A stretch of DNA of 64,000 nucleotides from Escherichia coli (GTDB taxonomy: Bacteria; Pseudomonadota; Gammaproteobacteria; Enterobacterales; Enterobacteriaceae), in assembly GCF_003334405.1 (NCBI RefSeq), contig NZ_QOWM01000005.1; one strand, written 5' to 3'. The position numbers and the translations under genes were made by a program. This document shows, piece after piece, positions 51,178 through 57,984 of this stretch; the stretch's first letter is position 1, and every line of letters begins with the position of its first letter. The notes beneath the pieces are model-generated. The model was given only the letters and a program-made list of their open reading frames with translations. It was not told where the DNA came from and made no database searches.

Positions 51178-51308
51178 AGCAGTACCTCCTTCACAGTGGC
51201 GAGCTTCCTGTATAACGCAAAAATGTGACGGAGATCTATATTTTTTGTGTATGTTTTGTTCAACCTGGATTTGGAGCGCGCCTCCACCAAAGCCGGATAT
51301 ACCTACCC

Positions 51309-51346
51309 GTAGGCCGGATAAGCCGCGCCTGGCGGCGCATCCGGCA
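51309..51346. repeat. REP-like palindrome in psiE-yjbT spacer
   Basis: gtaggccggataagccgcgcctggcggcgcatccggca; nearby 13-bp perfect palindrome ggagcgcgcctcc at about 51271-51283. Confidence 0.7.
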
Positions 51347-51446
51347 AGACAAACCGCACCAAAGCCGGTAATTCAAAAATCACCCATTCAGGTGATTCCC
51401 AGCCACCAGCAATGCGCGAAAAATCGACAATGTTCCTCTGGAACAA

Positions 51447-51725
51447 ATGAAACGTAACCTGATAAAGGTGGTAAAAATGAAGCCTTATTTTGCTGCTTTG
51501 ATGTTATCAGTCTCTGTTCTTCCTGCTTATGCTGGTCCGCTCGGTACTGCTGATAAAGCCGACCTACCGCAAAGCAATGTCTCCAGCCCAATGATGGCCC
51601 AGTCGCTCAGGCAACCAGACCTGCAACCGATATCGACGGACAGGAAGACAGAATGTTTTCGCCTTTACACACCAGATCGCAAACCGGGAGTGAACTGCGT
51701 TCCTGATGGCTCGACAGGCCATTAA
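51447..51725 (+). CDS. yjbT: Small secreted hypothetical protein YjbT
   Basis: ORF 51447..51725 (92 aa); second ATG at 51477 has the better Shine-Dalgarno (AAGGTGG) and would give 82 aa starting with a signal peptide. Confidence 0.55.
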   Translation: MKRNLIKVVKMKPYFAALMLSVSVLPAYAGPLGTADKADLPQSNVSSPMMAQSLRQPDLQPISTDRKTECFRLYTPDRKPGVNCVPDGSTGH

Positions 51726-51771
51726 GAATGAAGGTGCCAGTGAGTGCGAAAACTGGCACCTTTCCCATGAC

Positions 51772-53868
51772 TTAGCGGAAATTGACGCTACGGTCGCTGG
51801 TCATGTCATACAACTGGAACTTACGCCCAAGTTGCTGACCACCGTCACGCGTCAGCGGCGTCCAGCCAATCGCCGCACGGCTGCGTGTCGGGCCAGACGA
51901 GAAGAGATCCAACGGTACCGAGACATACACGCCTTTGGTGAAGTCCCCTTCGCCGTACTCCTCTTTCGAAACATTAGTGATCGTGGCATAGCCACCCACC
52001 ACCACGCCGCTATCAAAGCGTTTGGCGATCTCCAGCGTGCCGCCTTTATCCCCTGCCAGATACTGCCCGACGCTGGCTTTAACTAACACATCCTGAGCGA
52101 AAGATGGCGTCCAGTAGGCGGTCAGATGTCCGGTTTTCACGCTGTAGTCGGTGAATTTCATCATATCTTTTGCACTACGCCAGTCGCGCTGTTTAACGTA
52201 GTTGGCATCCAGACCAAACGCCCAGTTGCTGTCCAGCGGGCGATACAACACTTCTGCCCCCGCACCGCCAAACATGGTTTCGAGATAACCACCGTAGACC
52301 TGACCGTAGAAGCCGTTGCCCAGATGCTGGAAGTAGTTGGCTTGCAGGTTATTCACATAGACATCGTTCTGCACATACTCGCGCACATGGGTACGCACGC
52401 GCGGTAAGTGCGAGTCCTGCGGAGGATTAGTGTAGTTAAACTTGTCGTAGTTGTTGGCAAGATTTGCAAACAGGCTGCCGGTGGTCAGCAGATGGTCCGT
52501 CAGCCACAAATCTGCCGTTCCCATCACGCCCAGCTGATACATGTAAAAGTTTTCCGGGCCACCGACCGACTGGTTCAGCACCGGATCGATATGGAAATCA
52601 AAGCGTGATTTGTCGATATACCAGCCCTGCTCGGTGGACTGCGGAACCACTGGCTCGACGCGTTTTTGCGCCAGCGTCGTTTCGTGGCCCAACGGCTCTC
52701 CGGCGAGATGATTTTTCAGGCTGGCGACATCGGTTTCCGTCGTCACCTGCGGCATGTTAAGGCGATTTTCCGTAATGCGGATCGTTTTGATCCCATCCGG
52801 CAGATCGTTCATCACGATCCGATTCGCACGGATGATCCCTTCGCGCGAATCACGATATTTCACCTGCTCGCCGGTAACATACAGCGTATCGCCTTTCGCC
52901 TGGATCTGTGGATCGGCAAGTCCGGCATTGTATTTCAACAGCGTTAACTGATTCGCCACCACCGAATGCTGCAAAATGGCATCCTGCGGCTGCGGTTGAT
53001 ATTGCGGGCGGGCGTTATCGTTGTAAGACGGGCGCAGATCGTTAAAGTTGGTGCGCAACGTAACGCCAAACATAAAGGTGTTGCCACGTTCATAGCTAAG
53101 GTTAACGTCGGCCCAATCGGTAACGCGATAAATCGCACCGACGTTAAACTTACTTTTTTGCTCCAGCTTCCCGGCAAAATCCTGCTGATAATTATTGCCT
53201 TCATACTCCAGTTTCAGGCGCAGCGGTTGCCAGGGCGTCTGGTATTCCACGCCGCCAAACAGTGAGGCAGGACCGTGGAACATCTGGCTACCGTCGATAG
53301 ATCCCGCCTGTTTGTAGCTGTTATCGCGATAGCAATATTTATCACTGGCTGAACAGAGCGGATTTTTCACATTACCGCTGGTGCCCAAATATCCCCAGCC
53401 CAGGCCGAGCGTAAAATCGAACGGCCCCCAGGCTTTGCTGGCAACAAGATATTCCGCATCAAACAGCCCCGTACCGCCGATATCCCGCGCACCAACCGCC
53501 ACTTGCGGCAGCCAGTAACTCTCTTCCCACAAACGCAGTTTGAGATCGAAGGCTTTATCTTTATACGTTTGATCGCCAGAGAACGCTTCGACGCTGCTGT
53601 ACTGCCGGGTGCGCACGTCGGTGTAGCGCAGCGTTGTTTCCAGCCACGGGAAGAGTTGCACTGAAGCTGAGTAATAACGGTACTGATCGTTATCGCGATA
53701 GTTCAGACTCAACTCCCCTTCCCGTGCCATACGCGCGGTGGGCGTTTGTAATAATCCTACGCCACCGAAATCCGACTGCGACGGACCAATGGGCGCAGGA
53801 TATGTTTCGCCGTAGCAAGCTGTGCTAATGCCCAGCGCCAGTAAGCTAAGCAGATGTCTTTTTTTCAT
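51772..53868 (-). CDS. yjbH: YjbH, large outer-membrane beta-barrel-like protein of the yjbEFGH exopolysaccharide-associated operon
   Basis: ORF 51772..53868 (698 aa); signal peptide, aromatic-rich C-terminus ending in F; start overlaps yjbG stop (TAATG). Confidence 0.85.
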
Positions 53869-54605
53869 TATTGAGGTATCCGCTGCGTCAGAGTCTGAAG
53901 AATGTCGGCGTTAAGGGCATCAGGCGTCTCACTCCAGACGGAGTCCGCGAGGCCAACATAAATAATGCTGCCGGGCATCGGCTCTACGTGACGCTTGTTC
54001 CAGTAAGCCACCGGCGCTTTTTGCGTGCGTCCGTCCGGGTAAACCACCCACGCGTAGCTGCGATCCGCACCGCTGAGCAGGCTCTGGTCAGAGAGATAGC
54101 TCGCCACGTCGCGACCTGGAGTGAATGGCTGCTTGCCAGGACGGCTGATAAGCCCGAACAACGTGACCGTGGACGGCGGTGGTCCGACCCACAGCGTGTA
54201 GTTGCCCTGCAACGGCGGGTTACCGCGTTCGGCAACGCGGACGATATCGGGATCAAGATTGATTTTTTGCCTGCCCGTCACTTTCAACGCCTGAATTTGC
54301 TGGCGTAAGGCGTTAATCGCAGCGGCATCGTCGGCGCTGGAATCTGCGCCCTGTTCTGCCAGCCGTGTCAGCAACGCCTGCTGCTGACGCAATGCTGCCG
54401 CCGTTGCCAGCTCTTCGCTAATCACCGCACCGGGCCACCAGCTGTTTGCCAGCCGCGGTTGGCCTACCAGATCGATTAAATGCTCTGCGCCCGTTAGCGT
54501 TTTGGCCTCACTGCTGCCATTGCTGAACACCTTGACGGTTCCTGCCGCGAAGACCGATGACGCTCCCACACTCAAAAGCAACGCGACAATAGTTTGTTTA
54601 ATCAT
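53868..54605 (-). CDS. yjbG: YjbG, periplasmic protein of the yjbEFGH operon
   Basis: ORF track 53868..54701; ATG at 54605 gives 245 aa with signal peptide; ATGA overlap with yjbF stop. Confidence 0.82.
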
Positions 54606-55240
54606 TGTTTTGCCGCCTTGATGAGAGTGGTTTTCACCGGAAAATAATCCGCGCCGAGATACTGTTCCGACTGGCGAATTTGCCCTTCGCTGTCGATCCA
54701 ATAGCGGTTATGCCAGCGCGCCTGGTCGGTGGAGACTTCTTCGTCCAGCACGCGAACCGGGGTTTCATCGCTGCCGACTTTGACGGTATCGGTGCCATCC
54801 CATTTGAAGACTGAGCGTGCGGTGGCGTAGCGTACCTGCTGGTACTCGGTCCAGCCCATCGTGCGCGTCCAGCTTGCGCCATCAACGATTTGTGCGGGTT
54901 TAATCAGCGGGTCGGCAGCAAGGTTATTCACTTCAATCAGGTTGTCGCCGCCGAGCAGAGTCTTCACCAGACGGCCATGTTGGGTAACGAGAGTAGCCTG
55001 ATCCTGAGTGACCCATTTTTGTTGTCCGTCTTCAGCGAAGGCCAGCACCACAAATAACTGCGGCCCGCCATTAAGCTGCATGTACTGGCTGGCGTAGGGC
55101 ATATTTTGAATATCATCATCCGTCAGCTGTACGCCTGGCGTGCCGAACAGACTGTCCCACAGTGAATTGCCCAGCTCTTTAGTCGTGGCTGAACAGGCCT
55201 GTAATAACAGGCAGATAAGAATGAGTGCAGGTCGCTTCAC
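54602..55240 (-). CDS. yjbF: YjbF, predicted lipoprotein of the yjbEFGH operon
   Basis: ORF track 54602..55270; GTG at 55240 gives 212 aa beginning MKRPALILICLLLQAC (lipobox-like LQAC). Confidence 0.8.
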   Translation of the reverse strand: MKRPALILICLLLQACSATTKELGNSLWDSLFGTPGVQLTDDDIQNMPYASQYMQLNGGPQLFVVLAFAEDGQQKWVTQDQATLVTQHGRLVKTLLGGDNLIEVNNLAADPLIKPAQIVDGASWTRTMGWTEYQQVRYATARSVFKWDGTDTVKVGSDETPVRVLDEEVSTDQARWHNRYWIDSEGQIRQSEQYLGADYFPVKTTLIKAAKQ

Positions 55241-55353
55241 GACTCTTCTCCAGAGGGGCAGAATAACCACACCGGAGTGTGGTTATGGTTAATCCCTTCA
55301 TACTTCTAGCCACAGATGCAATGACTCGAATTATTTTGGGGATACATACTTTA

Positions 55354-55596
55354 TTACTGGGTACTGGTGGTCGTGGTTGTGGTGGTCCCGGTATTAGAAC
55401 CATCACCGCCACCGGTTGCCGCAAGCGCGACACCCACCGCCGAGCTTACGGTGCTGACGCTGGTCGCGGAGGAACTCCCCGCCGAAACCGACGTTGCTGC
55501 CGACCCTGCCGCTTCGCCCACCTGTACAGGTGCAGCCCACGCAGAAGTCGCCGCAAGCGCAGATATGGCAAAAATGCCATACAGAACTTTTTTCAT
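55354..55596 (-). CDS. yjbE: YjbE, small secreted Ser/Thr/Gly/Ala-rich low-complexity protein
   Basis: ORF 55354..55596 (80 aa); signal peptide then low-complexity tract ending in a poly-Thr run. Confidence 0.75.
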
Positions 55597-55902
55597 AACA
55601 ATTTCCCTTCATTGAATGAATGGAGATTTACCCAAAAACATTTCGGGCGGGATCGAGTATACACAACTAAAGCATGCGAATTACGGCGCGGGGAATTAGC
55701 GATGGCGTTTTAGGATAATTGGAATGAATATCAAATATAAGTTTCAACTTATATTTAAATAACAATAAAAATCATAAACTTAAAATAAAAACAAAAGCAA
55801 TTAATCTGCGTATTTTCCGAAATAAACAACGATTAAAAATCTATTTTAGGATTAACCTCATGGTATGATTTCCGTTAAATCACAGACAAGGGGATTTATC
55901 TG

Positions 55903-55931
55903 ATAAAAAAATGCCGACATAACGTCGGCAT
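55903..55931 (-). terminator. Rho-independent terminator of pgi
   Basis: atgccgac-ataac-gtcggcat stem; minus strand followed by TTTTTTT. Confidence 0.8.
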
Positions 55932-56004
55932 TGTTATTAAGGTTATTTAATCAATCGTGCTATGTATTAATTGCCGAATACGATGTACATATCGGCATCG
56001 ACCT

Positions 56005-56081
56005 GTAGGCCTGATAAGACGCGACCGCGTCGCATCAGGCATCGGTTGCCGGATGCGGCGTGAACGCCTTATCCGGCCTAC
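56005..56081. repeat. REP/BIME pair between pgi stop and its terminator
   Basis: gtaggcctgataagacgcgaccgcgtcgcatcaggc and gccggatgcggcgtgaacgccttatccggcctac. Confidence 0.85.
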
Positions 56082-56094
56082 ATATCGACGATGA

Positions 56095-57744
56095 TTAACC
56101 GCGCCACGCTTTATAGCGGTTAATCAGACCATTGGTCGAGCTATCGTGGCTGCTGATTTCTTTATCATCTTTCAGCTCTGGCAGAATACGGTTCGCCAGC
56201 TGTTTACCCAGTTCCACGCCCCACTGGTCGAAGGTGAAGATGTTCAGGATCACGCCCTGAGTAAAGATTTTGTGCTCATACAGCGCAATCAACGCACCCA
56301 GGCTGAACGGAGTGATTTCACGCAGCAGGATGGAGTTGGTCGGGCGGTTACCTTCGAATACTTTGAACGGCACCACGTAGTCAAGCGTTGCCGGATCTTT
56401 ACCCTGATCACGATATTCCTGCTCAACCACTTCGCGGGATTTACCAAACGCCAGCGCTTCGGTCTGGGCGAAGAAGTTAGACAGCAGTTTCTGGTGATGA
56501 TCAGAGAGCGGGTTATGGGTGATAGCCGGAGCGATGAAATCGCACGGTACCATTTTGGTTCCCTGGTGGATCAGCTGGTAGAACGCGTGCTGACCGTTAG
56601 TGCCTGGTTCACCCCAGATAATCGGGCCAGTCTGGTAATCCACAACGTTACCGTTACGGTCAACATACTTACCGTTGGACTCCATATTGCCCTGCTGGAA
56701 GTACGCCGCGAAACGGTGCATATACTGGTCATACGGCAGAATCGCTTCAGTTTCCGCACCAAAGAAATTGTTGTACCAGATGCCAATCAGCGCCAGCAGT
56801 ACAGGCAGGTTTTTCTCGGCAGGCGTGGTGGAGAAATGCTTGTCCATCGCGTGTGCGCCGGAAAGCAGTTCAACGAAGTTATCAAAGCCGATGGAGAGAA
56901 CAATCGACAGGCCAATCGCTGACCACAAAGAGTAACGGCCGCCAACCCAGTCCCAGAACTCGAACATGTTGGCAGTATCAATACCAAACTCGCCAACGGC
57001 TTTGGCATTGGTGGAAAGCGCCGCAAAGTGTTTTGCAACGTGTTTTTCATCACCTGCCGCTTTCAGGAACCAGTCACGCGCGCTATGGGCGTTGGTCATA
57101 GTTTCCTGAGTGGTGAAGGTTTTAGATGCTACCAGGAACAGCGTGGTTTCCGGGTTTACTTTTTTCAGCACTTCCGCGATGTGAGTCCCATCGACGTTAG
57201 AAACAAAGTGCATGTTCAGGTGGTTTTTGTACGGACGCAGAGCTTCGGTCACCATGTATGGGCCGAGGTCAGAACCGCCGATCCCGATGTTCACTACGTC
57301 AGTGATTGCTTTGCCGGTATAACCTTTCCACTCACCGGAAATAATCGCTTCTGAGAAGGTTTTCATCTTCTCCAGCACCGCGTTGACTTCCGGCATTACG
57401 TCTTTGCCATCAACCAAAATCGGGGTATTGCTACGGTTACGCAGCGCTACGTGCAGCACGGCGCGGTTTTCAGTGCGGTTGATCTTCTCGCCAGAGAACA
57501 TCGACTTAATCGCGCCCGCCAGATCGCACTCTTTCGCCAGATCCTGTAATTTCGCCAGCGTCTCTTCAGTGATGCGGTTTTTGGAGTAATCCACCAGCAT
57601 CTGATCGTCGAAGGTTGCGGAGAACTTAGAAAAACGATCGCCGTCTTTAGCAAAAAGATCGGCGATCGTAACGTCTTTCATTTCATCGAAGTGTTTCTGT
57701 AGTGCCTGCCAGGCAGCGGTCTGCGTTGGATTGATGTTTTTCAT
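56095..57744 (-). CDS. pgi: Glucose-6-phosphate isomerase
   Basis: ORF track 56095..57750; ATG at 57744 gives 549 aa; PGI family sequence. Confidence 0.97.
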
Positions 57745-57984
57745 TAGCAATACTCTTCTGATTTTGAGAATTGTGACTTTGGAAGATTGTAGCGCCAGTC
57801 ACAGAAAAATGTGATGGTTTTAGTGCCGTTAGCGTAATGTTGAGTGTAAACCCTTAGCGCAGTGAAGCATTTATTAGCTGAACTACTGACCGCCAGGAGT
57901 GGATGAAAAATCCGCATGACCCCATCGTTGACAACCGCCCCGCTCACCCTTTATTTATAAATGTACTACCTGCGCTAGCGCAGG

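Follow-up and report, generated by a model that had tools for sequence, protein, structure and literature searches.

The window analysed here, a stretch of 64,000 nucleotides of an Escherichia coli genome, carries on its minus strand, at positions 51772-56094, the E. coli K-12 yjbEFGH operon together with the entire spacer between pgi and yjbE. Comparison of window positions 51400-56200 with the genome of strain MG1655 revealed 3 mismatches in 4801 nt (an MG1655 coordinate equals 4291502 minus the window coordinate), and a megablast search with the same interval found the stretch, annotated as yjbE, yjbF, yjbG and yjbH, in 5414 of 5426 complete E. coli genomes. The operon is an already known and ordinary component of the core genome, present here as a K-12-like variant rather than as the exact MG1655 sequence, and it shows no difference of substance from the MG1655 locus b4026-b4029. 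The identification as yjbEFGH and the description of four co-directional genes, both made in a first-pass annotation of this DNA, were borne out by the open reading frame (ORF) listing, the RefSeq gene limits and the MG1655 alignment. The primary paper on the K-12 operon is the 2007 work of Ferrieres et al. The four genes are arranged as follows:

55596-55354, minus strand: yjbE, 80 aa, ATG start
55240-54602, minus strand: yjbF, 212 aa, GTG start after GGAGAAGAG, lipobox LLQAC
54605-53868, minus strand: yjbG, 245 aa
53868-51772, minus strand: yjbH, 698 aa

The genes yjbF and yjbG overlap by 4 nt (ATGA) and yjbG and yjbH by 1 nt (TAATG), as had been described for the operon at first reading; the description does not extend to yjbE and yjbF, which have no overlap and are separated by a gap of 113 nt. 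These features are widely shared among 77 other Enterobacteriaceae loci (those analysed of 80 fetched), where yjbF starts with GTG in 74/77, yjbF/yjbG overlap as ATGA in 68/77 and yjbG/yjbH as TAATG or TGATG in 63/76. In the window the GTG start, likewise noted earlier, lies at position 55240 according to both the sequence and the RefSeq annotation. The translational coupling that the overlaps had been taken to imply was previously proposed for this gene family (PMC8592465).

All four products fall in Pfam families (YjbE PF11106, YjbF PF11102, YjbG GfcC_N/GfcC_C and YjbH PF06082), while no NCBIfam model matched any of the four Yjb proteins or YjbT. YjbF (PF11102, E = 8.6e-64) is 39% identical to GfcB of the MG1655 gfcABCD locus, which served as the gfc reference, and matches the structure entry PDB 2IN5 (YmcC/GfcB) with E = 3.3e-43; by sequence it is an outer-membrane lipoprotein of the GfcB/YmcC family. 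YjbG combines PF20616 (GfcC_N) with PF06251 (GfcC_C), is 42% identical to GfcC and matches the solved GfcC structure PDB 3P42 with E = 2.2e-55, which identifies it as a predicted periplasmic protein of the GfcC family. YjbH and GfcD share 65% identity over 696 residues. The comparison with GfcB, GfcC and GfcD that had been suggested as a check thus yielded matches both to the proteins and to structure entries, and YjbF, YjbG and YjbH appear as clear paralogues of GfcB, GfcC and GfcD, respectively. The paralogy proposed in the first-pass annotation stands for these pairs (39, 42 and 65%) and is not demonstrable for YjbE and GfcA.

The likeness between the two loci extends to their organisation, since gfcABCD has the same gene order, products of similar size (101/214/248/698 aa, compared with 80/212/245/698 aa for yjbEFGH), overlaps that are likewise of 4 and 1 nt, GTG as the start codon of gfcB, and a gfcA-gfcB spacer of ~106 nt with a hairpin and a T-run. 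Unlike the group 4 capsule operon gfcABCDE-etp-etk, yjbH is not followed by homologues of Wza, Wzb and Wzc (gfcE, etp, etk), and the convergent gene yjbT is found there instead. K-12 gfc differs further in carrying IS1D 33 bp upstream of the gfcA start codon (L002 9779-10546 in the MG1655 gfc locus), so that the upstream region of the K-12 gfc operon is disrupted, whereas that of yjb is intact. K-12 lacks O-antigen.

The small first product, YjbE (PF11106, E = 5.5e-33), consists of 80 aa with a Sec signal peptide (..SAWA/AP) and a mature peptide of 58 aa rich in Ser, Thr, Ala and Gly (22% T, 21% S, 17% A, 16% G), a composition that, along with the signal peptide, agrees with the low-complexity secreted protein described before. 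BLASTP of YjbE against GfcA showed no homology (E = 65), and GfcA did not match the Pfam YjbE family; an order-dependent local alignment of the two scored z ~2.4 above shuffles. YjbE and GfcA have in common their position, small size, signal peptide, Thr/Ser/Ala/Gly composition and a C-terminal GDG followed by a T-run. Mean identity to the E. coli protein was 90.5% for mature YjbE (77 loci), higher than for YjbH (88%), YjbF (80%) and YjbG (66%). In the 57 loci with an 80-aa YjbE, the C-terminal 30 aa were 97.7% identical, and the same codon was used at only 61% of the conserved C-terminal residues. The pattern indicates that YjbE is under strong constraint at the peptide level, which leaves room for YjbE as a specific cargo or anchor.

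The AlphaFold2 model of YjbH, built on 47 diverse homologues, was confident (predicted local distance difference test, pLDDT, 88.6; predicted template modelling score, pTM, 0.85) and groups the beta-strands into an N-terminal block (52-274) and a C-terminal one (401-669), with an alpha/beta domain (301-389) between them. According to this model, YjbH is an outer-membrane protein whose N-terminal barrel, of ~12 strands, is followed by the alpha/beta domain in the centre and by a second barrel at the C-terminus. Structure prediction, which had been named as the check on the view of the 698-aa YjbH as beta-barrel-like, therefore returned a confident transmembrane barrel resembling outer-membrane barrels of solved structure, and the model reproduces a published two-barrel architecture (PMC8346858, PMC9603273, PMC11494523). 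Among multi-barrel outer-membrane proteins, this family is stated to form the largest group (PMC8346858). A sequence search of the PDB found no relative of YjbH, and no solved structure matched the whole chain in Foldseek (query-normalised TM-score <= ~0.2). In having two barrels and a soluble domain in one chain, YjbH differs from the PgaA, BcsC and PelB porins and from the amyloid channel FapF.

The YjbH family also bears on the partnership with YjbG, as at least 33 of 76 long family representatives carry a YjbG-like N-terminal segment. Such natural fusions support a physical YjbG-YjbH complex, and the conserved 1-nt overlap of yjbG and yjbH is counted alongside them for the coupling of the two proteins; binding of GfcC and GfcB to GfcD has been published (PMC9603273, PMC8592465). 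Fusions were seen among distant YjbH homologues of 900-1400 aa, e.g. P0125, P0126, P0152, P0180 and the gene at L087 4277-8003. The L087 fusion gene sits after a yjbF-like gene and polysaccharide biosynthesis genes, this distant homologue lying directly behind genes for a WecG-type and a WecA-type transferase and a sugar-nucleotide dehydrogenase, a context that ties the YjbH family to polysaccharides.

The pgi-yjbE spacer measures 498 bp (55597-56094), close to the ~500 bp of AT-rich upstream region noted at first. Only the part at 55600-55900 is AT-rich (GC 0.25-0.32, against ~0.5-0.6 around it), the pgi-proximal 190 bp being occupied by a GC-rich pair of repetitive extragenic palindromic (REP) sequences and the pgi terminator hairpin, and this tract is unlikely to be a transcribed leader (see below). 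When the 400 nt before yjbE were aligned from 76 Enterobacteriaceae species, the footprint consisted of three short conserved blocks amid unconserved flanks, with an invariant -10-like block closer to the gene:

55847-55860, minus strand: Box 1, TGAGGTTAATCCTA, RcsAB-box-like, 264 nt before the yjbE ATG
55807-55820, minus strand: Box 2, TCGGAAAATACGCA, RcsB half-site TNRGA
55711-55724, minus strand: Box 3, TTCCAATTATCCTA, promoter-proximal, half-site TCYNAAA
55653-55667, minus strand: invariant block GTTGTGTATACTCGA, with a -10-like hexamer TATACT at 55661-55656

All 76 species (76/76) agree on T1, A3, G4, T10, C11 and A14 of Box 1, in contrast to its variable flanks; the invariant letters include every conserved (capital) letter of the RcsAB consensus TaAGaatatTCcta (PMC4325325), and the variable positions are those left free by the RcsB pattern TN(G/A)GAN4TC(T/C)NA (PMC7913699). 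Box 2 retains T1, G4 and A5 in 76/76 species and A14 in 75/76, and the TC-Y-N-AAA of Box 3 is invariant in 74/74. The distances between these elements fall into classes ~11 bp apart: from Box 1 to Box 2 (start to start) there are 51 bp in 58 species and 50 bp in 7, and a further 7, E. coli among them, have 40 bp; Box 1 precedes the -10 block by 205-207 bp in 47 species, 192-196 bp in 20 and 181-183 bp in 7; Box 3 lies 50 bp ahead of the TGTGTATACT block in the majority of species and 38-39 bp ahead of it in a small number. Helical phase is thus kept, which is a property of DNA-bound proteins, and the conservation of Box 1 and Box 2 looks like that of protein-binding sites. Box 1 lies within one or two substitutions of TAAGGATTATCCGA, the sequence upstream of rcsA that we take to be the known rcsA box. 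Compared with other RcsAB-box promoters (rcsA, wza/cps), yjbE differs in having three candidate boxes instead of one, two of them at ~-160 to -210 from the proposed start, with helically phased spacing.

The promoter itself is placed at the -10-like block, which was found as TGTGTATACT in 73/76 species by a strict pattern and in the other three by a relaxed one, and which precedes the ATG by 65-71 nt in all but one species (~69 nt here). The sigma-70 consensus scan returned no minus-strand site before yjbE, so the promoter is deduced from conservation only, and a literature search on the yjbE promoter found no paper. Transcription of yjbE is inferred to start near 55649 (MG1655 ~4235853), giving a 5' untranslated region (UTR) of ~53 nt. 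The -10-like block is situated 69 nt ahead of the ATG, and the conserved boxes are farther upstream still, so the AT-rich tract probably serves as upstream regulatory DNA and not as leader. The predicted folding of this 5' UTR did not differ from that of shuffled sequences (z = -0.35), and no leader structure is therefore claimed. The 15-nt GTTGTGTATACTCGA is invariant across genera beyond the needs of a -10 element, and most of the next ~50 nt to the ATG (55597-55645) are also conserved.

The gap between yjbE and yjbF contains another conserved element, a stem-loop in the minimum free energy (MFE) fold:

55263-55286, minus strand: hairpin AUAACCACAC-UCCG-GUGUGGUUAU, then UCUG

The stem-loop UAACCACAC-UNCG-GUGUGGUUA is present in all 79 Enterobacteriaceae sequences compared, in most cases with UUUUG behind it. 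The 9+9 nucleotides of the stem do not differ in any of the 79, nor is there any compensatory change, and the loop varies only at position 2 (UUCG in 71, UCCG in 3, UGCG in 3 and UACG in 2); in Pantoea the same stem carries a GCCU loop and precedes six U. The 10-pair stem folds at about -14 to -15 kcal/mol, and the tail behind it is UUAUUUUG in most genera. The same hairpin occurs in loci L003-L082 and at L084 2557-2580. It is read here as a partial terminator or 3'-end stabiliser that would raise yjbE over yjbFGH. Known cases in which a hairpin between genes of one operon makes their expression unequal include the malE-malF REP and the papB-papA hairpin. The yjb hairpin resembles these in being a stable stem-loop directly behind a small first gene, the product of which is likely to be required in excess, and differs from them in its UNCG cap and in a stem that is invariant across genera.

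Export signals are present on all four products, none of which matches an enzyme family, and no glycosyltransferase, flippase/Wzx, polymerase/Wzy or ATP-binding cassette (ABC) transporter gene was found in or adjoining the operon (pgi, yjbT, psiE, xylE). Together these observations point to an outer-membrane module and not to a biosynthetic locus. It is quite probable, overall, that yjbEFGH is such a module, with an Rcs-boxed promoter and a stoichiometry set by the hairpin and the gene overlaps. In the proposed mechanism, RcsA-RcsB would activate transcription through three conserved RcsB-type boxes located ~60-210 bp upstream on one face of the helix, from a conserved promoter with a weak -35 situated ~53 nt before the yjbE ATG. 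The UNCG hairpin after yjbE would terminate part of the transcripts or protect the yjbE segment, so that YjbE exceeds YjbFGH, while the overlapping stop and start codons would couple the translation of yjbF, yjbG and yjbH. A complex of YjbF, YjbG and YjbH at the outer membrane may then export or anchor a polymer synthesised elsewhere; in YjbH, the C-terminal barrel would resemble polysaccharide porins and the N-terminal barrel FapF/KdgM.

The regulatory part of this explanation is in line with published work. Rcs regulation, which the first-pass annotation had ascribed to the operon, has been reported repeatedly (PMC5461412, PMC3599342, PMC5105897, PMC8117528, PMC11494523), including Rcs- and RcsA-dependent induction of yjb and RcsA dependence in Salmonella (PMC5461412). 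All four genes are jointly induced by colicin M (log2 5.74, 5.67, 4.29 and 5.23 for yjbE, yjbF, yjbG and yjbH, respectively; PMC3599342), and a LolCDE inhibitor likewise induces all four together (PMC5105897). Overexpression yields an exopolysaccharide distinct from colanic acid (PMC5461412, PMC8117528), the structure of which is given as unknown (PMC5461412, PMC11494523), and mutation of the operon has been linked to colanic-acid mucoidy, altered phage selection and colanic-acid anchoring (PMC8540638, PMC8117528, PMC7414163).

Several observations weigh against the module as proposed. The full RcsAB consensus TAAGAATATTCCTA has no match at <=3 mismatches in 55597-56094, and a strict RcsAB scan of the whole window gave 7 matches against 3.6 expected, none of them in the yjbE spacer. 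A scan for an RcsAB box had been suggested as a check and thus failed with the strict consensus, whereas the phylogenetic footprint did yield conserved boxes. Box 1 departs from the full consensus at 4 positions, as many as TAAGGATTATCCGA upstream of rcsA, from which it follows that a limit of <=3 mismatches is too strict for ruling yjbE out of the RcsAB-activated promoters. The distance of Box 1 and Box 2 from the proposed promoter, ~160-210 bp, is large for simple activation, and both sit inside a match to the putative STnc430 RNA. In E. coli the tail after the yjbE-yjbF hairpin is only UUAUUCUG, and the terminator scan made no call there. The colicin M induction ratios of yjbE and yjbF are alike, which neither supports nor excludes attenuation (PMC3599342). 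Finally, the polymer itself is left unidentified in the literature (PMC5461412, PMC11494523), as it had been in the first-pass annotation.

The position of Box 1 and Box 2 raises the question of whether they are conserved as part of a divergent small RNA and not as sites of RcsAB binding. The match concerned is the following:

55793-55942, plus strand: STnc430 (Rfam RF02053, an enterobacterial small RNA candidate), full length, 79 bits against a gathering score of 47

The match is oriented away from yjbE and toward pgi, contains both boxes and ends in the pgi terminator hairpin. This full-length, above-threshold match in E. coli is accompanied by detection of STnc430 in 10/16 other genera tested; a sigma-70-like site on the plus strand (55759-55786) ends 7 nt before its 5' end, and in the Rfam model the two boxes pair with each other in a helix. 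Among the 76 species, however, only 14 have fully complementary half-sites, where independent variation would lead one to expect 27, and no covariation or compensatory change was detected in the box helix; half-sites that vary independently argue against RNA pairing. Conservation is moreover confined to those positions that the RcsAB/RcsB consensus specifies, the others varying freely; the spacing relative to the yjbE promoter block shifts in ~11-bp steps, as is proper to DNA; and a literature search found no paper validating STnc430. An origin of the box conservation in STnc430 is accordingly judged unlikely, and binding of RcsAB-type proteins is preferred. For the hairpin between yjbE and yjbF, the corresponding alternative is a sequence-specific recognition site, either a DNA operator palindrome or an RNA bound by a protein or RNase, in place of a plain attenuator or stabiliser. 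The 18 stem nucleotides without substitution or compensation in 79 sequences and Pantoea, amid variable flanks, speak for such a site. Yet in Enterobacteriaceae the loop varies at position 2 alone and stays UNCG, a signature of RNA stability that is not expected of a DNA spacer, and in most genera the stem is succeeded by a stretch rich in U (typically UUAUUUUG, with six U in Pantoea). A recognition site is a genuine possibility, if a rather doubtful one, and the attenuator or stabiliser remains the favoured role of the hairpin.

Two further alternatives concern what the module does. That yjbEFGH is a self-contained locus of exopolysaccharide biosynthesis is suggested by RefSeq and Pfam names such as 'exopolysaccharide production protein' and by the polysaccharide, distinct from colanic acid, that appears on overexpression (PMC5461412, PMC8117528), but it is hard to reconcile with export signals on all four products, with their lack of any enzyme-family match and with the lack of glycosyltransferase, Wzx/Wzy and ABC-transporter genes in or adjoining the operon, and it is considered highly improbable. 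The other alternative assigns the operon the main role of peptide secretion or display, with YjbE as the cargo that passes the FapF-like N-terminal barrel of YjbH to form a surface layer or anchor, and with the polysaccharide phenotypes as secondary. In print, the FapF-like barrel of GfcD has been proposed to carry a peptide or amyloid, in passages that do not name GfcA (PMC9603273). This role is rather unlikely as the principal one. A more elaborate version would unite both functions: YjbE would be no disordered filler but a secreted peptide of specific sequence, itself the real cargo or surface anchor, made in excess by means of an invariant UNCG hairpin that is recognised sequence-specifically, and leaving through the FapF-like N-terminal barrel while the C-terminal barrel handles glycan. 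It is unlikely, and if it were true, the widespread GfcABCD/YjbEFGH family would be a combined peptide-plus-polysaccharide surface-assembly system. The outer-membrane module that exports or anchors a polymer made elsewhere is the reading retained.

The surroundings of the operon are those of MG1655. The gene order pgi-yjbEFGH-yjbT-psiE-xylE is the same in the window and in MG1655 (RefSeq, and also in a near-identical K-12-type genome), with convergent yjbT, then psiE and xylE, on the downstream side of yjbH. The remaining features at the locus are as follows:

56095-57750, minus strand (same strand as yjbEFGH): pgi
56008-56078, minus strand: REP/BIME (bacterial interspersed mosaic element) pair just after the pgi stop; Rfam naRNA4 RF02564, 79.5 bits against a gathering score of 59.5
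55910-55932: intrinsic terminator hairpin of pgi, AATGCCGACGTTATGTCGGCATT plus T-run, 10 pairs, then TTTTTATCAG (terminator scan)
55291-55350: internally deleted remnant of a repeat element, 60 nt, between the yjbE stop and the hairpin
51731-51762: hairpin AAGGTGCCAGT-N10-ACTGGCACCTT with an 11-bp stem, between convergent yjbH and yjbT, read from the sequence

The hairpin at 55910-55932 is also, on the other strand, the 3' hairpin of the STnc430 model in the Rfam alignment. A weaker match to the REP-derived family naRNA4 lies at 51312-51404, and the presence of REP in the query explains why E. coli genomes matched it at a median of 33 places each. The 45-aa ORF at 55957-56094 on the plus strand was rejected as a gene, being a translation of REP, and a 47-aa 'hypothetical protein' called by the Prokaryotic Genome Annotation Pipeline (PGAP) at 51303-51446 on the minus strand of the K-12-type genome likewise looks like a REP translation, MG1655 having no gene there. 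The 60-nt remnant, presumably ERIC-like (enterobacterial repetitive intergenic consensus), aligns to both ends of a 124-nt insert found at the same place in Citrobacter sp. L032; E. coli and E. whittamii carry a remnant of 50-60 nt, and most genera have none and a spacer of 60-65 nt. Other Citrobacter and Enterobacter species have instead a REP-like insert after the hairpin. The hairpin at 51731-51762, which has no strong T-run on either strand and was not called by the terminator scan, is probably the end of the operon and a shared transcript end of yjbH and yjbT. The only interval given by a riboswitch-entropy paper (in old K-12 coordinates) lies beyond the downstream end of the operon, in the direction of psiE.

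The best-matching genome, NZ_CP073996.1 (strain PM7), carries IS1A inside the yjbEFGH stretch, so that the match comes in two pieces and covers 5578 bp for the 4801-nt query; insertion of IS1, into yjbF and into the spacer between yjbE and yjbF, has likewise been reported in sedimentation-resistant mutants (PMC8117528).

Taken as a whole, the first-pass annotation was accurate and its interpretation essentially right, although the operon, its paralogue and its regulation were already known. The operon yjbEFGH is a standard member of the Rcs envelope-stress regulon and a frequent target of mutation in mucoid, phage-tolerant or predator-resistant E. coli (PMC8117528, PMC7414163, PMC8540638). The three phased boxes, the probable promoter, the UNCG hairpin, the constraint on YjbE and the YjbG-YjbH fusions are modest refinements of this known system, and they offer concrete targets for experiment.

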